Shown here: positions 2,096 through 33,507 of the stretch, piece by piece
Position numbering within the stretch: position 1 is the first letter of the stretch
Layout of the letters: each line of letters starts with the position of its first letter
Made by a program: the position numbers and the translations under genes
Notes under the pieces: model-generated
The model's database searches: none
Told to the model about the DNA's origin: nothing
The model's input: the letters and a program-made list of their open reading frames with translations, nothing else
Source of the DNA: Candidatus Poribacteria bacterium
GTDB taxonomy: Bacteria; Poribacteria; WGA-4E; PCPOR2b
Reading direction: 5' to 3'
DNA length: 64,000 nt
Assembly: GCA_965208325.1 (NCBI GenBank)
Contig: OZ242326.1
Span: 2,208,001 to 2,272,000 of the forward strand

Positions 2096-3049
2096 ATGAA
2101 TGACAATCGAACGAAAGTGGCACTTACCCGAGAAGGAAATCGACGTGAAAATGTCTTCACCGCACTCGATTTGGTCCGCGGCGATGTCGTTCCCAAGTTG
2201 CGGGATCAGGTGATGTTGAAACCGAATTTCCTTTCGGGCGATTACCAGTTGGCGTCAACACACGTTGATGCCATCCGCGGCACAATTGATTTTTTGCTGA
2301 CGACCGCAGCGCCACCGCAGGAAATTATTGTGGCGGAAGGCGGCAACGAAGCGGTACCCGGAGAGGCGTTCGAGAATTTCGGTTATTACGCTTTAATTGA
2401 CGAATACCCCATCCCAATTCGGTTGGTCGATCTCAATCAGGAGGAGAATTGGGAGGAGACGCACATCCTTCTCGCGGATTGCAGTGAAGTCCCCGTGTAC
2501 ATGCCCAAAACCGTGTTGGATTGCCCGTGCACGATCTCCGTCGGTGTCGCAAAAACACACGATGTCTGTGTGGTTACACTTGCCCTTAAAAACATGATTA
2601 TGGGGACATTACGCAAACAGGACCGCGTCAAGATGCACGGCTTCTGCAGCCACGCGGAGCGAAAATTGCCCCGCGAGGCACAGACACTGAACATCAATCT
2701 GATTCGGTTGTCCCGATATCTGTGCCCCGACATCGCCGTTATTGACGGATACCTTGGGTTACAGGGAAACGGTCCTATTGGAACCGACGCCGTTGATTTC
2801 GGGATTGCTGTCGCAAGTGCAGACGTGTTTGCCGCCGACACCGTGATGGCGAAAGCGATGGGCTTTGATCCACTGCATCTTGGATTGATGCATTACGCCA
2901 ATGAGATGGGATATGGTACGGCTAATCTCAATAAAATCGATGTGTTGGGAACCCCGATCGAATCAGTGATCACGCCGTTCAAGCCGCATGAAACGGTGCA
3001 TCTCCAATTGCAATGGCATGAACCCGATGCGATGCGTTATTTGACATAA
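2096..3049 (+). CDS. DUF362 family protein
   Basis: VMLKPNF, IIVAEG, KTH...TLALKNMIMG and VIDG..GLQGNGP motifs; GGAGG RBS. Confidence 0.85.
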   Translation: MNDNRTKVALTREGNRRENVFTALDLVRGDVVPKLRDQVMLKPNFLSGDYQLASTHVDAIRGTIDFLLTTAAPPQEIIVAEGGNEAVPGEAFENFGYYALIDEYPIPIRLVDLNQEENWEETHILLADCSEVPVYMPKTVLDCPCTISVGVAKTHDVCVVTLALKNMIMGTLRKQDRVKMHGFCSHAERKLPREAQTLNINLIRLSRYLCPDIAVIDGYLGLQGNGPIGTDAVDFGIAVASADVFAADTVMAKAMGFDPLHLGLMHYANEMGYGTANLNKIDVLGTPIESVITPFKPHETVHLQLQWHEPDAMRYLT

Positions 3050-3112
3050 AATGTGTGAGTACGTCGATTGGCTTGTTCAGGCGGCATAGGGACGGTCGAG
3101 CAGAACATCAGA

Positions 3113-3140
3113 GTAGGTGCGGAGGAATCACTTCGCACCC
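3113..3140 (+). repeat. GTAG-type REP-like palindrome
   Basis: gtaggtgcggaggaatcacttcgcaccc: GTAG followed by an imperfect hairpin; related to 3500-3524. Confidence 0.45.
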
Positions 3141-3162
3141 ATCGCGTCGAGCTAGAAAAAAC

Positions 3163-3191
3163 TTGACATCTTATCAATCGTTTGTTAACAT
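3163..3191 (+). promoter_or_regulatory. Sigma70-type promoter for the ileS leader
   Basis: TTGACA (3163-3168), 17 nt spacer, TGn-TAACAT (3186-3191). Confidence 0.65.
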
Positions 3192-3234
3192 AGTGTTATA
3201 GTTTGCCGCGACTTCAGATGGAGAGATTTGGACT

Positions 3235-3375
3235 GTGTCACATTCATTATCACGCGCCGCTGTGGACAATACGCATAATAGAGGCATACCCGCTGTACCT
3301 TTCGTGTCTGCCTTGATTCCCATAATCGACGTCATTTGCGCGTCTTACTGTGGTGGGCTGATAAAAACGACCTAA
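3235..3375 (+). CDS. Candidate Ile-rich leader peptide (46 aa) of an ileS attenuator
   Basis: GGAGAG at 3220-3225, GTG start, MSHSLSRAAVDNTHNRGIPAVPFVSALIPIIDVICASYCGGLIKTT, stop 3373-3375; 6 Ile codons, 4 of them within 7 codons. Confidence 0.5.
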   Translation: MSHSLSRAAVDNTHNRGIPAVPFVSALIPIIDVICASYCGGLIKTT

Positions 3376-3406
3376 ATTCGGTTCCGCAATCATAATTATA
3401 CATAAT

Positions 3407-3449
3407 GCCCATCATCGAAACAGGCTTCGATGGTGGGCGTTTTTATTTT
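3407..3449 (+). terminator. Intrinsic terminator in the ileS 5' leader
   Basis: 13-bp stem gcccatcatcgaa / ttcgatggtgggc with one GU pair, 6-nt loop, then gtttttatttt. Confidence 0.8.
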
Positions 3450-3498
3450 CGGTGAATATCTGTCATAGCCATTACCATCCATGTGTGCACACGCCGCG

Positions 3499-3566
3499 TT
3501 AGGTGCGGATTCCAACCGCACCTATGGACTGGATGAATACCGGTTCGGTTAAGAAACCGAACCTGC
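3499..3566. repeat. REP-like doublet of hairpins
   Basis: taggtgcgg-attccaa-ccgcaccta and ggttcggtt-aaga-aaccgaacc hairpins close together. Confidence 0.5.
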
Positions 3567-3652
3567 CGCAGTGTATAAATCTTCATAGGATTCACTATAG
3601 CTTTTGGAAGGTTTTGGACGCTCCAACGGTTTGCGTTAGGGAGGAAGAGCGT

Positions 3653-6600
3653 ATGTTTAAGGAAGTACCCAACACAGTCGATTTTATCGCGCAGGAACAC
3701 CAAGTGCTTGAGTTCTGGCGCGACAGCGACGCGTTTAATAAGCTCAAAGCGTTAAGACAAGACGGACCGCGCTGGAGTTTCATTGATGGTCCAATTACAG
3801 CCAACAATCCGATGGGGGTTCACCACGCTTGGGGACGCACCTATAAAGATCTCTACCACCGTTTCAAGGCGATGCAAGGTTACCAAACGCGCTATCAAAA
3901 CGGGTTTGATTGCCAAGGGCTTTGGGTTGAGGTCAATGTCGAGCGTGAAATTGGATTTAAGAGTAAAAAGGATATTGAATCCTACGGGCTGGCGGAGTTT
4001 GTCAACGCTTGCAAGCAGACGGTGCTTCGATACGCCGCAACGCAGACTGAGCAGTCGATTCGGTTGGGTTACTGGATGGAGTGGGATGACCCGCAGCAGT
4101 TACGGTATCTGGAAGCGAAGATGGCTGAAGACCCATCGGCAATTGTCACGGTAGAAGCACCGAACGGTTCCGTCACCGACACAGCGGAACAGCTCGTCGG
4201 ACGGTTGGGTATGCCGCAGTTGGGCGGATCTTACTTCACTTTTTCAGATGAAAACAATTACACGATTTGGTCGATGCTCAAGAGTTGTTTCGATCGCGGT
4301 TGGATTTACAAGGGTACAGATGTCATGCCTTGGTGCACGCGATGTGATACGGGCATCAGCCAACACGAGATTGTGACTGACGGATACCGGGAGTTGAGCC
4401 ATAAAAGCATTTTCCTGCGCTTTCCGCTGCGCAACCGCCCCGATGAAAGCCTGTTAGTTTGGACGACGACGCCGTGGACACTGACTAGCAACGTAGCGGC
4501 AGCCGTGCATCCCGATCTCAGCTACGTCCTCGTTGAACAAAATGGACAACGCATGTGGCTGGGCAAAGGGGCTTTGGAGAACGCCATTCGAGGACCGTTT
4601 CACGTGCTTGAAGAAAAATTGGGTGCTGCGTTAGAGGGTTGGACCTATGACGGCCCATTTGACGAGTTGCCCGCCCAACAAACCGCAGGCGCAGCCGCCC
4701 AACACCGCATCGTGCTGTGGGACGAAGTGGGAAAAGCCGAGGGAACGGGAATCGTTCATGTAGCGCCGGGGTGCGGAGCAGAGGACTTTGAGCTGAGCAA
4801 AGTCCAGAATCTGGCAGTCATTGCGCCGTTGGAGGCGGGAGGAATCTATGGAGAAGGGTTCGATTGGTTGACGGGCCGGTATGTACATACCGTCACCGAA
4901 GAAATTTTCGAAAATCTGAATCAGAAGGGTATTGTGTATCGCCTGGAGGACTATACGCACCGTTATCCGGTGTGTTGGCGATGCGAAGAGGAACTCGTTT
5001 TCCGATTGGTAGACGAATGGTATATCTCAATGGGTGAGCAATTCGACAAACCCTATGAGGAGATTGCCGAAGCGGAAAAGCGGCAAAATTTACGCTACCA
5101 GATGATGGAGGTTGTCCTAAACCAAACCAACTGGTATCCCGCGTTTGGACGCGCACGCGAACTTGATTGGCTGCGCAATATGCACGACTGGATGATTTCC
5201 AAGAAGCGCTACTGGGGTCTAGCGCTTCCAATCTACGAATGCGGCGAATGCAGCCACTTCCATGTCATCGGGAGTCGCGAGGAATTGAAGGAACGCGCCG
5301 TTGATGGCTGGGAACTGTTTGAGGGGCATACGCCGCACCGCCCCTGGATTGATGCCGTGAAAATCGCATGCCCACAGTGCAGTGCGCCGGTTTCACGGAT
5401 TCAAGATGTAGGCAACCCGTGGTTGGACGCGGGCATCGTCACCTTCAGCACGCTTCAGTACCGCACCGACAGAGACTACTGGCAGAAGTGGTTTCCCGCG
5501 GATTTAATCAGTGAAAGTTTTCCGGGCCAATTTCGCAACTGGTTCTACTCGCTAATCGCCATGAGCACTGTCATGGCAAAACATGCACCCTTCAGGCATA
5601 TCTTCACTTACGCAACACTGTTTGGCGAAGACGGGAAACCGATGCACAAGTCCTCGCCCAATGTAATCTGGTTCGATGAGGCGGCGGAGAAGATGGGAGT
5701 GGACGTGATGCGTTGGATGTATTGCGTCGCGAAACCGGAGCAAAATCTACTTTTTGGTTATAAACGAGCGGACGAGGTTCGGCGCCAGTGCTTGATACCG
5801 TTGTGGAACTTGTATAGCTTCCTCGTCACTTATGCGAATCTTGACGGGTGGCAGCCAGACAGCAAGCTCTGGGCGGCGTATGCGGACAACCTGCACCGTA
5901 ATACTTTGGATCGCTGGATATTATCGCGGCTACAGGTAACGGTCCGCGAAGTAACCGACGGACTAGAGACGTTTGAGCCGGATAAAGCCTGCCGCGCGAT
6001 TGAGCGTTTTCTTGACGATTTATCAAATTGGTATGTGCGGCGAAGCCGCCGCCGCTTCTGGAAGTCGGAGGCGGATGCGGACAAACAGTCCGCATACCGG
6101 ACGCTCTACAGCGTTATGGTAACCTTCACACATCTGCTAGCGCCGTTCGTCCCTTTCGTCACAGAGTCAATCTATCAAAACTTGGTACGCCGAGTTGATC
6201 CGACAGCGCCGGAATCGGTACACCATGTCAATTGGCCGCAACCGCACGAAGCGTTGCTGGATGAATCCCTCATTAAGGCGATGGGAACAACCCGCACGGT
6301 GGTGACATTGGGGCTTGCCGCCCGCGCCTCTGCGAACCTGAAAGTTCGGCAACCGCTGAGCCGCGCCTTAGTTTCCCTACCCGACAGACAGAAGTTAGAC
6401 GATGAGATGATTGTGTTGATTACGGACGAACTCAACGTGAAGTCCGTGGAGTTTGTGGACGATGCCAATCAACTGCTACGATACCGTCTGCTGCCGGATA
6501 ACCGCATACTGGGACCGCGGTTTGGGGCGCGCTTCCCGGCGGTGAGGCGAGCGCTGGATGAGTTAAGCGACCAGGATACAACGGAAGCCGTGCGGCAGTT

Positions 6601-7024
6601 GGAAAGCGGCGGTGCAATTGCACTGGAATTGGATGACGGGATGGTTCCGCTCGCCGCGGAGGAGGTCATCATCCAGCACGAACAACCCGAAGGGCTGGCG
6701 GTCACCACGGAACAGGGGATGACGGTTGCTGTTGATACGCAACTTACTCCGGAACTAGTTTCGGAGGGATTGGCACGCGAGGTGGTGCGCCACATTCAGA
6801 ACTTGCGGAAAGCTGCCGATTTCAAGCTCGATGACCGCATTGTCACCACGTATCAGGCAGACCAAGAACTCATGCAGGTGATTGCCGATTGGTCGGCGTA
6901 CATTGCGAACGAAACGCTAAGCGTGGAATTACGCGCGGGGCAACCTATGGCAGAGGCTGCGCAGGCCGAAGACACCGTGTCCGGACTTCAGTTGAAATTA
7001 GGGGTGAGCCGGGCAGTTGTGTAG
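3653..7024 (+). CDS. ileS: Isoleucine--tRNA ligase, type 2
   Basis: FIDGPITANNPMGVHH, GFDCQGLWVE, WTTTPWTL, GTGIVHVAPG, DWMISKKRYWG, PMHKS, LSNWYVRRSRRRFW, EGLAREVVRHIQNLRK. The ATG at 3653 follows GGAGGA; the ORF track start at 3503 is too long. Confidence 0.97.
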   Translation: MFKEVPNTVDFIAQEHQVLEFWRDSDAFNKLKALRQDGPRWSFIDGPITANNPMGVHHAWGRTYKDLYHRFKAMQGYQTRYQNGFDCQGLWVEVNVEREIGFKSKKDIESYGLAEFVNACKQTVLRYAATQTEQSIRLGYWMEWDDPQQLRYLEAKMAEDPSAIVTVEAPNGSVTDTAEQLVGRLGMPQLGGSYFTFSDENNYTIWSMLKSCFDRGWIYKGTDVMPWCTRCDTGISQHEIVTDGYRELSHKSIFLRFPLRNRPDESLLVWTTTPWTLTSNVAAAVHPDLSYVLVEQNGQRMWLGKGALENAIRGPFHVLEEKLGAALEGWTYDGPFDELPAQQTAGAAAQHRIVLWDEVGKAEGTGIVHVAPGCGAEDFELSKVQNLAVIAPLEAGGIYGEGFDWLTGRYVHTVTEEIFENLNQKGIVYRLEDYTHRYPVCWRCEEELVFRLVDEWYISMGEQFDKPYEEIAEAEKRQNLRYQMMEVVLNQTNWYPAFGRARELDWLRNMHDWMISKKRYWGLALPIYECGECSHFHVIGSREELKERAVDGWELFEGHTPHRPWIDAVKIACPQCSAPVSRIQDVGNPWLDAGIVTFSTLQYRTDRDYWQKWFPADLISESFPGQFRNWFYSLIAMSTVMAKHAPFRHIFTYATLFGEDGKPMHKSSPNVIWFDEAAEKMGVDVMRWMYCVAKPEQNLLFGYKRADEVRRQCLIPLWNLYSFLVTYANLDGWQPDSKLWAAYADNLHRNTLDRWILSRLQVTVREVTDGLETFEPDKACRAIERFLDDLSNWYVRRSRRRFWKSEADADKQSAYRTLYSVMVTFTHLLAPFVPFVTESIYQNLVRRVDPTAPESVHHVNWPQPHEALLDESLIKAMGTTRTVVTLGLAARASANLKVRQPLSRALVSLPDRQKLDDEMIVLITDELNVKSVEFVDDANQLLRYRLLPDNRILGPRFGARFPAVRRALDELSDQDTTEAVRQLESGGAIALELDDGMVPLAAEEVIIQHEQPEGLAVTTEQGMTVAVDTQLTPELVSEGLAREVVRHIQNLRKAADFKLDDRIVTTYQADQELMQVIADWSAYIANETLSVELRAGQPMAEAAQAEDTVSGLQLKLGVSRAVV

Positions 7025-17028: not shown

Positions 17029-17158
17029 CAAGCCGCCTTTCACGGTTGTGAAACGATACCGGTTATGAAAGCTGGTTTTTTCGATTACGCATTAGCATAG
17101 CAAAAGTCCGAATAAAAGTCAAGAATTTCGTGGCAAATTCCTCGCCCGTCCTTTCCGC

Positions 17159-17187
17159 TTGATCTTTACACACGCTTAATGTATAAT
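17159..17187 (+). promoter_or_regulatory. Sigma70-type promoter for leuCD
   Basis: TTGATC, 17 nt spacer, TATAAT. Confidence 0.55.
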
Positions 17188-17250
17188 CTCGCACGCTAAA
17201 AATACGAATGGGACTTTGGCGTTTGAAAGTCCATGCACTAGGAGAAGCAG

Positions 17251-27052: not shown

Positions 27053-28411
27053 TTAAATTGAATAAATCATACGGCTTGCTTCATCAAAATCCACCTGAAA
27101 GGGGTTGGTTGAAAGGTAGAGCTTTTGGTAGGGTTCGTACAGTTGAATGTAACTCCAATTGACGCCGCAGAGCACCTTCCTTTCGTTTGCCAGTTTTACA
27201 AAACGCCCCCGGAATTTTGCGCGGGTGGTTTCCGGTGGATAGTGCATAGCGTTCTCAATCTCCTTATCGGCAACCATTTTTTGAACAAGGTCTTTTTTTT
27301 CAAGTTTATAATACAATCCGCGGTCCGGCCGGATATTGTGGTACTGTAGATCGAGCATCATGACTTTAGCCGAGTCCCATTTAAGGCGGCGTTGGGTGAC
27401 ATAGGTTTCAATCAATTTTTTCTTGGCGACCCAATCCAGTATTCGATCTAGTTGCATAGGGTCTGTTTCCAAACAGGTCAAAATGTACTCCCAAGCCGCC
27501 ATAATCTTGTTTTCGTCGGCATCCGATTCCTCCTGCTCAAAATACAGTTTAGCGCATTCGAGATACTCTCGTTGAAGTTCGACCGCAGATAGCCGCTTGC
27601 CACTCTCCAATTCAATCTGTTGGGTACAGGTCGTATCTTCCGATATTTGCTGGATTGCTCGCACAGAGTCGCGCAAAGCCAAACGCTTTTTTATGAAATT
27701 GTCCTCAATCATCCGCAAGACAATTGATGTGGTTCCGACCTTTAAAAATGTCGCTAACTCAGACATATTGGAATCGCCGACGATAACGTGCAACCGCCTG
27801 TATTTTTCCCGATCGGCGTGCGGCTCATCGCGTGTATTTATGATCCCTCGAGCTGTTGTCGTAGCAATGGAGATTTCCTCACGGATATGCTGGGCGCGCT
27901 GAGAAATAACGTATTTGCCTCGGTTGGTCGGTTTAACTTTGCCGGCGCCCGCAAAAACTTGGCGAGTGACAAAAAATGGAATCAGTTGTGAAGCGAGTTG
28001 ACGGAAGCTAACGTGCCGCTCCATTAGGTAGTTTTCGTGACAACCGTAGGTGTTTCCGGGCGTATCCGTGTTATTCTTGAAAACTGAAATTCTCCCAAGG
28101 AAGCCGTCCAATCTCATCTTACGTTCCGCAGCAACGGATAGCCGCTCAATAATCCGCTCACCGGCTTTGTCATGGATCACAACGTCGGTTACACTATCGC
28201 ATTCGGGGGTGGCGTACTCCGGATGGCAACCGATATCCTGATAAAAGCGAGCGCCGTTTTCTAGAAATACATCCGGATACATCCGTCCAGAGATGATTTC
28301 GCGAAAGAGATACATCACGGCATTTTGGATGGATAGCGCTTTGCCGCCTCGCCGATCGGAGGTACAAATAATCCCGTATTCATTTTCTAAGCCATAAATT
28401 CTACGATTCAC
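27053..28411 (-). CDS. pafA: Pup--protein ligase
   Basis: RRIYGLENEYG, VFLENGARFYQDIGCHPEYATPEC, KNNTD..GNTYGCHENY, INTRDEPHAD, RRLHVIVGDSN, DLQYHNI, PPETTRAKFRGRF. Confidence 0.93.
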   Translation of the reverse strand: MNRRIYGLENEYGIICTSDRRGGKALSIQNAVMYLFREIISGRMYPDVFLENGARFYQDIGCHPEYATPECDSVTDVVIHDKAGERIIERLSVAAERKMRLDGFLGRISVFKNNTDTPGNTYGCHENYLMERHVSFRQLASQLIPFFVTRQVFAGAGKVKPTNRGKYVISQRAQHIREEISIATTTARGIINTRDEPHADREKYRRLHVIVGDSNMSELATFLKVGTTSIVLRMIEDNFIKKRLALRDSVRAIQQISEDTTCTQQIELESGKRLSAVELQREYLECAKLYFEQEESDADENKIMAAWEYILTCLETDPMQLDRILDWVAKKKLIETYVTQRRLKWDSAKVMMLDLQYHNIRPDRGLYYKLEKKDLVQKMVADKEIENAMHYPPETTRAKFRGRFVKLANERKVLCGVNWSYIQLYEPYQKLYLSTNPFQVDFDEASRMIYSI

Positions 28412-29121
28412 GATGCTAATATCTCTTCGAGTTCATCCGGCAGGAGACGCCTGAATTTACGTCTATTTCTATTTTCATCAAGGACAGCGACTTCTAGCGT
28501 GTCAGCCGAAATGTGATATCTCTGATCTTCGTCCGCCTTCGCCTCAATGGTTTCAAAGCCATTCACAGCCAGCTTTACCGCATCCTTCAACTCTAATCCA
28601 TCTTCGTACGCACCCTCAAGGATTTCTGAAATTTCATCTGATCGCCCGCCAATAATTGCATACTTCTGTTCTTCCCAAAAAGTGCCGTCAAACGAAAGCT
28701 GATAGATTCTATGGCTCGAATCCGGATCTGCCCTAAGTTCGCAAAGAAGCAGTTCGACTTCAAGCGGTTTTGTATCTGTTTGCCAGAAAATTGCGGCAAT
28801 TCGCTGCGAGAAAATATTATTCGTTAGCCATTTCGCAGTAACATCTGCACGGTTGAACGTATAACCCTTGATTTCTGCTTCTCGGATGCCGAGGTATCTT
28901 AGGGCTTCATATTCTGCGATTCGGCCAGTAGCGGCGAGCGCAATTCGATCGTAAATTTCCGAAATCTTGAAGAGTGTCGTCAACGGGTTTTCCGCAACCA
29001 TCACGATGCCGTCTTTGTATTCTAGAACAATAACCTCTTTGGCTCTTTCGATGCCAGTGCGGACAAAATCTGCTTTGTCCTGCATGATTTGTTCCGGCGA
29101 CACATAATACGGTGTGGACAT
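28408..29121 (-). CDS. prcA: 20S proteasome alpha subunit
   Basis: PYYVSPEQIMQDKADF.R.GI, KISEIYDRIA, KPLEVEL, LEVAVLD..R.RRKFRRL. Confidence 0.95.
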   Translation of the reverse strand: MSTPYYVSPEQIMQDKADFVRTGIERAKEVIVLEYKDGIVMVAENPLTTLFKISEIYDRIALAATGRIAEYEALRYLGIREAEIKGYTFNRADVTAKWLTNNIFSQRIAAIFWQTDTKPLEVELLLCELRADPDSSHRIYQLSFDGTFWEEQKYAIIGGRSDEISEILEGAYEDGLELKDAVKLAVNGFETIEAKADEDQRYHISADTLEVAVLDENRNRRKFRRLLPDELEEILAS

Positions 29122-29136
29122 CAACACCTCCTCTCG

Positions 29137-29955
29137 CTACATCTCTCTGAGGTTTTCAATTAACTCAGTGTATAGCCGTTCGACCTCTGAATCCGCAATG
29201 TCTGAAACCCCTCTTCGCTCTATACACTTGATTGTTGGGTAAATTCCACGAATCATATCCGGTCCCGCAGTCCCCAAGTCCTCATCGGCGGCATCCCAAA
29301 GCGCCTCAGCAACAACCCTCAATACCTCATCACGTGCCATATCCTTGCTGTAACGTTTCTTTAAGGTTGTCTGCGCATCCTTGCCGCCGGATCCTATCGC
29401 GTGATAATCTGCTTCTTCATACCGCCCGCCGGTAACATCATATTTATAGATTTTGGCTTGTTTCTCTTTCGGATCATAACCGGCAAAGATTGGAATGACG
29501 TATAATCCCTGCAGCGCCATACCTAGATTCGACTTCACCATGTTTGACAGATGATTTGCCTTGCCTTCCAAACTCAAGGTTGTACCTTCTATTTTTTCGT
29601 AAAACTCAACCTCAACTTGGAACAGTTTTGCCATTTCAATACACGGTCCAGCGACGCCAGCAATTGCAATCGCTGAATGTTCATCTACTTCATATACTTT
29701 TTGGATGCGCCGCTCGCCGACCTGAAACCCTTCTACAGCCTGACGATCGCCGGCAATAATCACGCCATCTTTGTAAACAGCCGCTAACACTGTAGTGCCT
29801 TTGAGCGCATCAAGCGAAGCGGCATGATGCTGCGCGCTTGGCAGCGGCACCTCGGACAACGCCTCCGTGTTGAATGCGGCATACAGTTCAGGACGCCTAC
29901 GCTTGAGGATTTCAAGGAAATCGGAGTTGCCGTAGTCGGCTACATCAAGCAGCAC
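29137..29955 (-). CDS. prcB: 20S proteasome beta subunit with propeptide
   Basis: Propeptide ending G|TTVLA (Thr1 nucleophile), AGDRQA, LSLEGKANHL, YDVTGGRYEE, GSGG, DAADEDLGTAGPD. Confidence 0.95.
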   Translation of the reverse strand: MLLDVADYGNSDFLEILKRRRPELYAAFNTEALSEVPLPSAQHHAASLDALKGTTVLAAVYKDGVIIAGDRQAVEGFQVGERRIQKVYEVDEHSAIAIAGVAGPCIEMAKLFQVEVEFYEKIEGTTLSLEGKANHLSNMVKSNLGMALQGLYVIPIFAGYDPKEKQAKIYKYDVTGGRYEEADYHAIGSGGKDAQTTLKKRYSKDMARDEVLRVVAEALWDAADEDLGTAGPDMIRGIYPTIKCIERRGVSDIADSEVERLYTELIENLREM

Positions 29956-30152
29956 TACTGCCCTCCTCTTTGAATATAATTCTCTACAAATTCTTCTGAA
30001 TCTTCTTCTAAAATTTCGTCAATTTCGTCGAGAAGTTGGTCGAGATCTTCTTTGATTTCCTCGCCCTGTTCCGTAACTTCCGGATCAGGTTGGATTTCCT
30101 CAGCATCTTGAGTCAAGTTATCTTTGTGTTCTTGCTGTTTTTCGGACGGCAT
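29955..30152 (-). CDS. pup: Prokaryotic ubiquitin-like protein Pup
   Basis: 65 aa acidic protein ending DQLLDEIDEILEEDSEEFVENYIQRGGQ; strong AAGGAGG RBS. Confidence 0.95.
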   Translation of the reverse strand: MPSEKQQEHKDNLTQDAEEIQPDPEVTEQGEEIKEDLDQLLDEIDEILEEDSEEFVENYIQRGGQ

Positions 30153-30167
30153 TTATCTCTCCTCCTT

Positions 30168-31667
30168 TTAAAAATTGTTGTTGGAACCGTGAATTGCATG
30201 AACGAGTTCTGATGCCGTACAAGTCCTCAAGAGATTGCCCACAATTTCTTGAGTGCCAAAATGTGGGCGGTCCATTAAGATTTTGTCTAAAGAAGAACCA
30301 TCAAGTGAAAAAATCATCGAATTCCAACTCGCGCTATGAATTTCGTGCGGGTATTTTTGCAAACACACACCCCGAAAATAGGCGCGTGTATCAACCGGTG
30401 GATGGGTTACAGCGTAGACGATTTCCTCTTGATTGAGTATACGTTCGACGTGTCCGTTTTTGAGTAACCTGACATATAGCCCTTTGTTGGGCCGTATGTC
30501 GTGATATTGCAGATCCATCATCCGGACGCGGGGATGCGACCAACTGACACCGCGGCGTTCGATATATGCAGTGATGAGGTTTTTCTTAATCACCCAATCG
30601 AGATGCCGCTCTAGCAGCATTGGATTGACTTCGAGCTGATTGAGAACAAACTCCCATTTGTCCATCACATCCTGCATCACTGGCGTAAAATCCGCCTTAG
30701 GAAGATGTTTATGAGCCAGTTCAAGATAAGCCCGCTGCACTTCGATCGGCGTCCATCGACGTCCATCGTCCAAATCGAGGGGATTTTTACATGATGAATC
30801 TCGCGACACCGTTTTGATTGCAGCAACTGGGTCTGACAGTTTGAATGCATCCCCCACCACACCCATTTCAATTAATTTCAGCACAATCGACGTGATTCCG
30901 ACTTTCAAATAGATGGTGAACTCTGACATATTGGAATCACCGACGATTACATGCAATCGGCGGTATAATTTTTCATCGGCGTGGGGTTCGTCGCGGGTGT
31001 TGATTATCGGACGAGCCACCATAGTGCTCAACCCCACTTCCGTTTCAAAGAAATCTGCACGCTGCGAGATTTGATAGTCCGTTTCCTCCGCGCCGTTTTC
31101 GGCGCCAACTTTTCCGCTGCCGGTGATGATTTGCCGCGTCACTAGAAACGGGGTTAACCCCGCGACAATGTCCTGAAAAGGAATACTCCGATTCATCAGG
31201 TAGTTTTCATGGCTGCCGTAGCTATGACCTTTATAGTCGCTGTTATTCTTATATATGATGATGTCTTGGTTAGCCGGCAGCAACTCTTCCGCAGCCATGC
31301 GGCTCAAATCTAATATCAGCTCTCCCGCCTTTTCATACTTCACAAGATCACGGGCATTTGTACATTCTGGCGTGCAATATTCCGGATGCGCATGGTCAAT
31401 ATAATACCGCCCACCGTTAATAAGAATGTCGTTGATGAGACTGTTGTTTTCTTGGTCGGGAGGATTGCTTTCGCCCTCGGATATAAACCCCCTTGCATCC
31501 ACCAATGGGTTTTCCTGCTCATAATCCCATGTGATGCCCTTCGGCCCCCGATCCTTATAGATATTTACGATGAGTGTCGAAGCGGCGACTGGATCCTGAT
31601 CGCGCGCATTTTTTACCGAAATCCCATACTCGGTTTCGGTTCCCATAATCATCGGTGTTGTTGTCAT
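30168..31667 (-). CDS. dop: Pup deamidase/depupylase
   Basis: IMGTETEYGI, WDYEQENPLVDARG Dop loop, NGGRYYIDHAHPEY, KNNSDYKGHSYGSHENY, SQRADFFE.EVGL.T, TRAYFRG. Confidence 0.94.
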   Translation of the reverse strand: MTTTPMIMGTETEYGISVKNARDQDPVAASTLIVNIYKDRGPKGITWDYEQENPLVDARGFISEGESNPPDQENNSLINDILINGGRYYIDHAHPEYCTPECTNARDLVKYEKAGELILDLSRMAAEELLPANQDIIIYKNNSDYKGHSYGSHENYLMNRSIPFQDIVAGLTPFLVTRQIITGSGKVGAENGAEETDYQISQRADFFETEVGLSTMVARPIINTRDEPHADEKLYRRLHVIVGDSNMSEFTIYLKVGITSIVLKLIEMGVVGDAFKLSDPVAAIKTVSRDSSCKNPLDLDDGRRWTPIEVQRAYLELAHKHLPKADFTPVMQDVMDKWEFVLNQLEVNPMLLERHLDWVIKKNLITAYIERRGVSWSHPRVRMMDLQYHDIRPNKGLYVRLLKNGHVERILNQEEIVYAVTHPPVDTRAYFRGVCLQKYPHEIHSASWNSMIFSLDGSSLDKILMDRPHFGTQEIVGNLLRTCTASELVHAIHGSNNNF

Positions 31668-31692
31668 AAGCTAAAAGAATAGATTGACATCT

Positions 31693-33507
31693 TTAAAGGT
31701 ACGCCCCGCCCTTTACAACTCTTACATCTTTCCTCTTGCGATCGGGTTCGTTCATCAAAGCTCTGATATTGACAATTCGTTCGCCTTTCCGCCCGGAAAT
31801 CTTTGCCCAATCATCTGGATTCGTTGTGTTTGGTAAATCTTCGTTTTCTTTATATTCCTCTCGGATAGCGAGTTGAAGATCTTCAAGCGTAATGCCCCGC
31901 TCTGCTTCTTCAGAATTGATTAAACGCTTGATTGCTATCTTTTTACTTCGAGCAACGATGTTATCAATCATCGCACCGCTCACAAAATCTTTGAAGTAAA
32001 GCGTTTCGCGCTCTCCGCGCGCATAAGTCACTTCAATGAATCTATTGTCTTCCGTTGTGGCGTACATCTCATCGACCGCTTGATTAATCATGTGCTGAAT
32101 TGCATTTTCCGGCTTTTGCTCAAACTTCTCTAATTCAGAAGGCGCAATGGGTAAATCCGGGGTCAAGTATTTTGAGAAAATATCCTTCGCACCTTCTGCC
32201 GTGGGCCGGTCGATTTTGATTTTGATGTCCAGCCTACCGGGGCGCAAAACGGCGGGATCAAGAAGATCTTGTCGATTACTAGCCCCAATCACAATCACGT
32301 CATGCAACCCCTCAACACCGTCAATCTCAGCGAGAAATGTTGGGACAACCGTGGACTCCATGTCGGATGAGATACCCATTCCTCTTGATCTGAATAAAGA
32401 ATCCATTTCATCGAAGAAAATGATGACAGGCACACCTTCTTTCGATTTTTCTTTGGCTTTCGAAAACACTTCCCGAATCTTACGTTCAGTCTCTCCTACA
32501 TACTTATTTAGAAGTTCTGGACCCTTGACATTTATAAAAAACCCTTTGACATCATCTCGACCTGTATGTTGGCGCACCCGTTCTGCCAGATTGTTAGCAA
32601 CAGCTTTGGCAATCAAGGTTTTTCCGCAGCCGGGCGGCCCGTAAAGAAGGATGCCAACCGGTGAAGTTAAACAAAACTCCTTATATTCATCCGGATACAA
32701 GTATGGTGTTTCAATTGCATCACGTATGGCTTCAATCTGTGGATTCAAACCGCCAATGTTTGCATACTTGATGTCCGGCACCTCTTCAAGCAATAAATCT
32801 TGCACCTCGGCGTTTGGAAGTTTCTCCATGACCATTCCGGTTGTATGATTGAGCAATACAAGATCGCCCGATCGAATCGGCTCTGATTTCAGCAGATCGG
32901 AAATCTGAACAACCCGTTCTTCATCAGCACGGAGATTAACGATTATGCGGGTTTCATCAAGCCGCTCCTTTACTTTAACTACCTCGCCATGCTGGTCAAA
33001 ATCTCTAACGGCGACGATGTTCATCACACCGTTGACAATAACTTCTTGGCCCTTTTGAAGTTGCTCAACGTTGATGTCCGGATCGACATTGACTTTCCAT
33101 CTTTTTCCAGAGAGATCGATGTCAACTGTTCCGTCATCGTTGGACTGGAGAAATGCGCCGTAGTTATTTGGGGGAGCGCTTAATTGCTCCACTTTTTCTT
33201 TAAGGTGCTCCAGTTTCTCTTTGGCTTCCTGAAGTGTGCTGGTCAGTTTCCGATTTCGACGATGCGCCTGCATTAATTCGCGCGTCATTTCGTAAAGCCG
33301 GATTTCAACATCGTCAGACGGGACGGCATTTAACCGCCTTCTTAGATTATCGACTTCGCTTTCCAGAGATTCGACAGTGAACTGCAATTCACGAATGCGT
33401 GTTTCATACGAAACCCGTTCCGATGAAGAAGGTGTCAGATCCAATGTTTCCTGAATGTCTTCACGTTTTGTGGAACCTCTTTTTTTGGTAGCCATAGTTT
33501 TACCCAA
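31693..33507 (-). CDS. arc: Proteasome-associated AAA ATPase (ARC/Mpa)
   Basis: N-terminal coiled coil, OB domains, GPPGCGKT, KGPELLNKYVGETER, FFDEMDSLFR, ENEDLPNTTNPDDWAKISG, C-terminal GAYL. Confidence 0.96.
   Translation of the reverse strand: MGKTMATKKRGSTKREDIQETLDLTPSSSERVSYETRIRELQFTVESLESEVDNLRRRLNAVPSDDVEIRLYEMTRELMQAHRRNRKLTSTLQEAKEKLEHLKEKVEQLSAPPNNYGAFLQSNDDGTVDIDLSGKRWKVNVDPDINVEQLQKGQEVIVNGVMNIVAVRDFDQHGEVVKVKERLDETRIIVNLRADEERVVQISDLLKSEPIRSGDLVLLNHTTGMVMEKLPNAEVQDLLLEEVPDIKYANIGGLNPQIEAIRDAIETPYLYPDEYKEFCLTSPVGILLYGPPGCGKTLIAKAVANNLAERVRQHTGRDDVKGFFINVKGPELLNKYVGETERKIREVFSKAKEKSKEGVPVIIFFDEMDSLFRSRGMGISSDMESTVVPTFLAEIDGVEGLHDVIVIGASNRQDLLDPAVLRPGRLDIKIKIDRPTAEGAKDIFSKYLTPDLPIAPSELEKFEQKPENAIQHMINQAVDEMYATTEDNRFIEVTYARGERETLYFKDFVSGAMIDNIVARSKKIAIKRLINSEEAERGITLEDLQLAIREEYKENEDLPNTTNPDDWAKISGRKGERIVNIRALMNEPDRKRKDVRVVKGGAYL

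Follow-up and report, generated by a model that had tools for sequence, protein, structure and literature searches.

Introduction

Transcription attenuators that work through a leader peptide are a known class (trp, his, ilv, pheST), and within it pheST of Escherichia coli, with its leader peptide pheM, is the textbook case of a controlled aminoacyl-tRNA synthetase. The ilv leaders of proteobacteria (ilvGMEDA, ilvBN) are multivalent, with Ile, Val, and Leu codons, and control biosynthetic operons. For this class ileS, the gene of isoleucyl-tRNA synthetase (IleRS), is an unusual target; it is a textbook target of T-boxes. To our knowledge, little is documented on how synthetase genes are controlled in bacteria other than Firmicutes and proteobacteria, and established cases in which a leader peptide attenuates a synthetase are essentially confined to pheST. 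Here, we analyze the region upstream of ileS in a stretch of 64,000 nucleotides (nt) from Candidatus Poribacteria bacterium (contig OZ242326.1, positions 2,208,001 to 2,272,000 of the forward strand), which is called the window throughout and in which positions are counted from its first letter. As judged from sequence, this region very probably carries a ribosome-mediated leader-peptide transcription attenuator, which would set the expression of ileS by the supply of charged tRNA-Ile.

The element of the window and its relatives resembles pheST in joining a synthetase gene, a short leader open reading frame (ORF) rich in cognate codons, and a terminator that competes with an antiterminator. 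It would also form the same autoregulatory loop, in which low synthetase leads to less charged tRNA, hence to stalling and to more synthetase. It differs from pheST in the amino acid (Ile, not Phe) and in the phylum, and has no sequence or Rfam similarity to it. Its leader ORFs, with 37–47 codons, are longer than that of pheM (14 codons), and the regulatory codons lie in the loop of a helix formed by the first two of four pairing segments, called regions 1 to 4. With the ilv leaders the element shares the use of Ile codons as the sensor, the logic of alternative 1:2, 2:3, and 3:4 helices, and the intrinsic terminator. Unlike them, it controls a synthetase, and the codon run is almost purely Ile in most of the relatives.

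Several published accounts, of which the available text is partial, come close to this element. In one of them, pheST is the γ-proteobacterial example of synthetase attenuation, ileS is placed under translational T-boxes in Actinobacteria, and trpS and leuS of Streptomyces are predicted to have leader-peptide attenuators, ileS being assigned T-boxes (PMC1262725). The Streptomyces cases are comparative-genomics predictions of classical synthetase attenuation outside proteobacteria, as is ours, for other amino acids and in another phylum. The T-boxes of ileS share with the poribacterial leader the gene, the signal (charging of tRNA-Ile), and, in the transcriptional type, the terminator/antiterminator output. 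Unlike the leader, a T-box acts independently of translation, by direct binding of uncharged tRNA. In Caulobacter, an ilv leader bears Ile and Val codons in tandem, and CCNA_03934 of Caulobacter crescentus is named an “ileS leader CDS” (coding sequence) and served as an overexpression control (PMC4117421). The latter puts on record a small translated ORF on an ileS leader in another phylum. It is likened to ours by description only, and the available part of that source describes for it no attenuator, Ile run, or regulation. An Ile leader-peptide attenuator of ileS was not found described in the literature searched, outside which the survey of Lopatovskaya et al. (2010; PMID 20198868) on attenuation of amino acid and aminoacyl-tRNA operons may contain predictions.

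Results

A Conserved Unit Immediately Upstream of ileS

An earlier note on the window had read the space before ileS as a promoter, a ribosome-binding site, a GTG-started ORF of 46 codons with clustered Ile codons, a stop codon, and a terminator, and had taken them for an Ile-dependent attenuator. All of these elements were found in place (Table 1). The window alone is weak evidence for such an attenuator, and the reading is supported mainly, and strongly, by conservation in relatives. One genome per species was scanned with the first 600 residues of IleRS, and the comparison covered the 80 best among at least 602 ileS loci. An alignment of upstream sequences places the leader unit immediately 5′ of ileS in all seven Poribacteria-type loci, six times intact and once truncated (L014). 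A profile of the leader (nhmmer) has one match each in the window and in these 7 of the 80 loci, always just upstream of ileS, and no match in the other 73. The IleRS of one leader-bearing locus, L001, is 98% identical to that of the window, and those of the six further ones are 82–92% identical; the remaining ileS loci among the 80 are mostly from Chloroflexota. A DUF362 gene abuts the leader in the window, L001, and L014 only, and in one more locus it lies 1.6 kilobases (kb) away. Since the upstream neighbor is not conserved, the leader element travels with ileS. The leader ORF and its Ile cluster are conserved in six of the seven related loci and in seven further peptides from databases. 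On these comparisons, the attenuator is real, conserved, and, among the 80 ileS loci, specific to Poribacteria.

The transcript of this unit would start near position 3198, behind a promoter with 10 of 12 consensus matches plus a TG extension, which is the only promoter-like site between positions 2900 and 3800. The form TTGACA-17-TA(A/C)CAT is kept in the window, L001, L002, L003, L004, and L015. In L016, the conserved promoter is not recognizable 5′ of the leader. That ileS is the controlled gene, as the earlier note had it, is supported, with a correction of its position: the gene does not follow the terminator immediately, its ATG lying 204 nt beyond it. In L002, L003, L004, and L015, the distance from the end of the terminator to the ATG is about 40 nt. 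A sequence scan of the window, L002, L003, and L016 finds nothing promoter-like from the terminator to ileS. Given these short spacers and the absence of such a site, ileS is taken to be transcribed by read-through of the terminator. In the window, ileS is monocistronic, because the next gene lies on the opposite strand.

Alternative Helices in the Leader

The intrinsic terminator (regions 3 and 4) has a stem at 3404-3441 with 16 pairs, seven of them G-C, a loop of 6 nt, and a hairpin energy of −24.6 kcal/mol in the window. Across the eight sequences (the window and seven relatives), all of its alignment cells are paired (104/104, 100%), against 35–68% in controls with slid columns. The earlier note had seen that an 8-mer of its 3′ arm, TGGTGGGC (3431-3438), is copied exactly within the leader ORF (3351-3358) and may pair with the 5′ arm as an antiterminator. 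Both copies are present, among a total of three in the 64-kb window. The antiterminator joins 3348-3358 (core A of region 2) with 3407-3417 (core C of region 3) and is mutually exclusive with the terminator. It is paired in 98.9% of 88 cells (31–58% with slid partner columns), and it is the minimum free energy (MFE) helix in all eight sequences when the 3′ arm of the terminator is left out of the fold. The relatives have 11 contiguous antiterminator pairs and the window 9 of 11. Duplex energies range from −15.6 (window) to −22.7 kcal/mol for 2:3 and from −23.8 to −31.3 kcal/mol for 3:4. Hence, the two helices that the earlier note proposed are both kept. The compensatory changes for which it suggested looking are found in the terminator, with one C-G to U-A replacement (in L014), and not in the antiterminator, where only wobbles occur.

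In region 2, the segment TGGTGGGCTG is invariant in 8/8 sequences, synonymous sites included, and the GAT GGT GGG CTG core is likewise invariant in 8/8, also at fourfold-degenerate sites. The core that is invariant at synonymous sites amounts to 10 nt.

The earlier account is extended by a third helix with covariation, between regions 1 and 2. RNAalifold on the full-length alignment (A4) pairs 3247-3260 and 3267-3272 with 3342-3347 and 3350-3364. The cells of this helix are paired in 91.3% of cases, against 28–55% in slid controls, and four pairs (seven cells) are changed on both sides. It scores 0.302 for covariation, compared with 0.221 for shuffled alignments, and none of 500 shuffles attains 0.302. 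The addition of 1:2 to 2:3 and 3:4 therefore gives a complete classical four-segment attenuator. Between the leader stop and the terminator, a further segment (B) also has invariant columns and can pair with core A in a hairpin that encloses the leader stop codon (RNAalifold, alignment A2). As a candidate for the main anti-antiterminator, this A:B hairpin is not favored: it is conserved without covariation, and the full-length RNAalifold structure prefers 1:2.

Within this family, the window copy is the weakest, with 9 of the 11 antiterminator pairs and four Ile in its run. The window and L001 have in common 12 nt inserted in the ORF, a smaller number of Ile codons, and a mismatched position in 2:3.

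Proposed Mechanism and Position of the Ribosome

From these parts we infer that the leader is translated, that ribosomes stall in it, that their footprint selects among the helices, and that the outcome responds to Ile. In the default state, 1:2 and 3:4 would both be paired, and transcription would end about 200 nt before ileS in the window. With scarce Ile-tRNA, the leading ribosome would stall on the Ile run, inside the 1:2 loop, and cover the lower 1:2 helix on its 3′ strand, thereby freeing region 2. The freed segment (3348-3358) would pair with region 3 (3407-3417), the terminator would be blocked, and the polymerase would enter ileS. With plentiful Ile-tRNA, the ribosome would reach the stop codon at 3373 and cover or sterically block region 2 during transcription of regions 3 and 4, which would let the 3:4 terminator form.

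The geometry of these states was modeled on nascent RNA in two ways: by MFE folds with a 28-nt footprint centered on the A site, and by pair probabilities with a footprint of −15/+16 counted from the P site. In the second model, a ribosome on the Ile run allows 8–11 expected A:C pairs in six of the seven intact leaders, and a ribosome at the stop allows at most 3.2 in all seven. The first does not tell a stalled ribosome from one at the stop; in it, A:C is absent in L002 on stalling, and L001 and L016 give mixed results. As the two models disagree and neither includes steric exclusion, the predicted geometry is suggestive. The distance from the 3′ end of core A to the leader stop is 15 nt in 7/7 leaders, and this fixed spacing also is suggestive of the geometry of a ribosome at the stop.

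Isoleucine Codons and Reading Frame

The leader frame is retained, with Shine-Dalgarno sequence, GTG start, and stop, in seven of the eight sequences, and GGAGA is aligned and nearly invariant among the seven intact leaders (7/7). Gap runs within the ORF measure 3, 6, 9, or 12 nt only, and outside it 1, 2, or 3 nt. The three codon positions are equally conserved (0.81/0.81/0.81). Because the gaps are multiples of three and the codon positions do not differ, the frame is constrained and the amino acid sequence is not.

In the window, the leader has Ile codons at 3286, 3316, 3322, 3325, 3334, and 3361; the regulatory cluster comprises 4 Ile among 7 codons and is located in the loop that regions 1 and 2 enclose. 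Of the 525 small ORFs of the window, 4 attain a density of 4 or more Ile per 8 codons. The runs of the relatives exceed that of the window, with up to 7 Ile in 8 codons versus 4 in 8. Twelve leader peptides contain 5–15 Ile each (11–27%, background 6.68%), and in each of them the best 8-codon stretch holds 4–7. The Ile run is the most constant trait of the leader family (as in SIGIISIIIIIPS and SIGIIIMILS). Seven further members (P0002-P0006, plus P0007 and P0008) came from searching databases with the aligned peptides; of these, P0007 and P0008 likewise possess an Ile run. The family is narrow, because there are just five representatives at E ≤ 0.001 among 1.84 billion proteins.

One could suppose that the attenuator is coupled to translation without sensing Ile in particular, responding to general translation capacity or to the coupling of ribosome and polymerase. 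On this view, the AUC/AUU-rich sequence needed for pairing with the G/U-rich region 2 would bring the Ile codons with it. AUCAU-like sequence complementary to region 2 does make up segments B and C as well as parts of region 1, a composition that favors Ile-like codons, and the thermodynamic model does not separate the states cleanly under all footprints. However, the Ile run lies in the 1:2 loop, outside the pairing strands of the consensus structure, and its length differs by whole codons, yet it stays Ile. All three Ile codons are used, and ATA makes up 15 of the 59 Ile codons in the seven leaders (window, L001-L004, L015, and L016) versus 3 of 47 in ileS of the window. Moreover, the regulated gene codes for the Ile-specific synthetase. 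We hold a sensor of general translation to be improbable, and an Ile-specific attenuator to be the better account of the run.

The conservation of the ORF could also reflect its product, namely a small functional hydrophobic peptide that has a promoter and a terminator to itself, with ileS downstream transcribed through leaky read-through or from another promoter. The equal conservation of codon positions 1, 2, and 3 argues against selection of this kind. So does the fact that each conserved block of the peptide overlaps an RNA pairing segment or the Ile run, and that fourfold-degenerate sites do not vary in the GGT GGG CTG core. The peptide does form a conserved family, with the pattern SIGII...DGGL common to 14 sequences, and gene callers predicted it as a protein (one copy is called hypothetical protein), but it has no Pfam match. 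Similarly, the 204 nt between terminator and ileS in the window would leave room for independent units, but in relatives the distance is about 40 nt, with no promoter-like site before ileS, and the element always adjoins ileS while the upstream gene varies. A functional peptide is thus slightly less probable still than a general translation sensor, and the attenuator remains the preferred reading of the ORF.

Evidence Weighing against the Attenuator

Several observations count against the attenuator proposed here. The earlier note had a ribosome at the stop occluding 3351-3358. This agrees with the −15/+16 footprint; with a footprint 3–4 nt shorter on the 5′ side, A:C persists with the ribosome at the stop in six of the seven leaders, and the occlusion would fail. 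In L002, region 2 is predicted by both models to be paired upstream even when the ribosome is stalled on the Ile run. Ribosome-free nascent RNA is predicted to form A:C, and not 1:2, in 5/7 leaders by MFE folds and in 6/7 by pair probabilities. The antiterminator has wobble changes only, with no compensatory double change. In the window, it contains one mismatch and 9 pairs, at −15.6 versus −24.6 kcal/mol for the terminator, and 4 of the 6 pairs are present in the lower 1:2 helix. The 6 Ile among 46 codons of the window leader are not significant by themselves (binomial P = 0.08, background 6.68%). The covariation statistics are modest, resting on only 7–8 sequences of which two are nearly the same. 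The model does not account for the conserved segment B, which may act as a hairpin for pausing or as an additional anti-antiterminator. Folding of the entire leader is not better than that of shuffled sequences (z = −1.05, and −1.48 in a second test). The idea of a globally structured leader RNA was dropped on these two values, only the specific helices being supported.

The remaining observation is the truncated leader of L014, a locus with 92% IleRS identity. It lacks promoter, Shine-Dalgarno sequence, start, region 1, and stop and keeps regions 2 to 4. The loss of this front half means that the full unit is not indispensable. The remnant (3767-4003 of L014) adjoins the stop codon of the DUF362 gene, and, the leader stop being lost, the frame runs in phase into the ATG of ileS.

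A terminator retained without the front half of the leader, together with the whole-leader z of −1.05, would also suit a terminator or insulator that acts constitutively and in part, or an independent small RNA that ends there, with the ORF and the alternative helix having no regulatory part. This alternative leaves unaccounted for the conservation of the frame and the Ile run, the invariant copy of the terminator 3′ arm within the ORF, the 15-nt distance to the stop, and the covarying 1:2 helix, and we consider it highly improbable. All of these features find a place in the Ile attenuator.

T-Boxes and Other RNA Families

Rfam gave no match to the leader at the gathering score in the whole 64-kb window and no match at all at E ≤ 10 between 3000 and 3720, where 4,227 families were searched. 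At the gathering score, there was no leader match in the seven leader-bearing loci and eight other loci either. T-boxes, known leader families, 6S RNA, and other small RNAs were therefore dropped as candidates. The remark of the earlier note that no T-box is visible holds for the window, for 3000-3720, and for the seven related loci. A scan for tRNA and tmRNA found none in the window. The situation is different in Chloroflexota, which served as a positive control: 6/6 ileS loci tested have a full-length T-box match (RF00230) directly upstream of ileS, with E-values from 3e-11 to 6e-18 and 62–89 bits, which is below the Rfam gathering score of 93. A crude regular expression for the T-box core motif is matched in 0/7 leader-bearing loci versus 25/73 others. 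Two of the Chloroflexota loci have, about 3 kb upstream of ileS, matches resembling the cspA thermoregulator (L011 465-911 and L012 21-469; 59–63 bits, under the gathering score of 78).

The least probable of the alternatives is a leader RNA that binds a ligand, a tRNA, or a protein (T-box-like or a new riboswitch) and works the same switch with an incidental ORF: many bacteria do control ileS by a T-box, and the six Chloroflexota loci with T-box matches have a related IleRS, but even at E ≤ 10 no Rfam family matches, T-box included (3000-3720), the regular expression for the core motif is matched in none of the seven leader-bearing loci, and no conserved structured aptamer-like domain is seen, the leader 5′ of region 2 varying by whole-codon indels.

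Features of the Locus and of the Window

The coordinates of the locus are given in Table 1. The product of ileS scores 673 bits against TIGR00392 (cut-off 621) and contains the domains tRNA-synt_1, Anticodon_1, and, C-terminally, DUF5915. In the window and L001 only, the spacer between terminator and ileS carries an insertion of about 121 nt (relative to L014) with two perfect 9-bp hairpins (3500-3524 and 3542-3563). Its interpretation as a repeat or mobile element was dropped, as it has no second copy in the window; no promoter-like site lies inside it. In L016, short tandem repeats (for instance, units of TTCCATCC and the heptamers CGCATTA and CACGTTT) fill the spacer at about 3800-3990. In L015, the leader ORF is partially duplicated in its 5′ part, and the duplicate lies between promoter and Shine-Dalgarno sequence (3659-3700; a weak nhmmer match, E = 1.5).

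Table 1. Features of the leader-ileS locus, in positions of the window
Feature	Position	Strand	Description
Intergenic space between the DUF362 gene and ileS	3050-3652		DUF362 gene at 2096-3049
Promoter of the leader-ileS transcript	3163-3191	+	Sigma-70-like; −35 TTGACA at 3163-3168, 17-nt spacer
Extended −10 of the leader promoter	3186-3191 (−10 hexamer)	+	TGtTAACAT
Shine-Dalgarno sequence of the leader ORF	3220-3225	+	GGAGAG, 9 nt 5′ of GTG
Leader ORF	3235-3375	+	Peptide VSHSLSRAAVDNTHNRGIPAVPFVSALIPIIDVICASYCGGLIKTT; GTG start, 46 codons, TAA stop at 3373-3375
Region 1, 5′ strand of the 1:2 helix	3247-3272 (3247-3260, 3267-3272)	+	Within ORF codons 5-13
Regulatory Ile cluster	3316-3336	+	ATT 3316, ATA 3322, ATC 3325, ATT 3334
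Region 2	3342-3364	+	Partner of region 1 or region 3
Core A of region 2	3348-3358	+	CTGTGGTGGGC; antiterminator 5′ strand
Segment B	3386-3394	+	GCnnTCATA; between leader stop and terminator
Region 3, terminator 5′ arm	3404-3419	+	Pairs with region 4 or region 2
Core C of region 3	3407-3417	+	GCCCATCATCG; antiterminator 3′ strand
Region 4	3426-3451	+	Terminator 3′ arm 3426-3441, then T-tract TTTATTTT
Lineage-specific insertion of about 121 nt between terminator and ileS	3480-3600	+	Flanked by ATAGC; not in the conserved attenuator
Shine-Dalgarno sequence of ileS	3639-3644	+	GGGAGG
ileS, regulated gene	3653-7024	+	ATG start at 3653; isoleucine--tRNA ligase, 1123 amino acids

Elsewhere in the window, the minus strand carries a complete Pup-proteasome cluster at 27053-33507 (the Pup ligase PafA, the 20S alpha and beta subunits, the depupylase Dop, and the proteasome ATPase). 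The region upstream of leuCD (17044-17250) has a promoter-like TTGATC-17-TATAAT and a hairpin at about 17210-17232. It was considered as a similar leader and rejected, since inspection by eye found no leader ORF with a Leu run in it.

Discussion

We slightly favor the view that Poribacteria have evolved their own Ile attenuator for ileS, which would do the job of the T-box on the nearest IleRS homologues, those of Chloroflexota, so that two unrelated RNA devices would have converged on one signal, the charging of tRNA-Ile. A bolder extension concerns the codons themselves: the enrichment in the rare codon ATA (25% in the leaders versus 6% in ileS) would adjust the sensor to the minor tRNA-Ile that depends on lysidine.

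If the attenuator is what we propose, it would count among the very few synthetase genes with classical attenuation. Being compact (about 250 nt), it is a potential sensor of Ile-tRNA charging in a heterologous host. The small ORFs called here as “hypothetical protein” would be regulatory leaders, which has consequences for annotation. A ribosome-stalling solution where T-boxes are not used would also offer a natural comparison, between the leader peptide of Poribacteria and the T-box of Chloroflexota acting on related IleRS. For Poribacteria, a phylum of uncultured sponge symbionts, the element would be the first cis-regulatory RNA to be defined.

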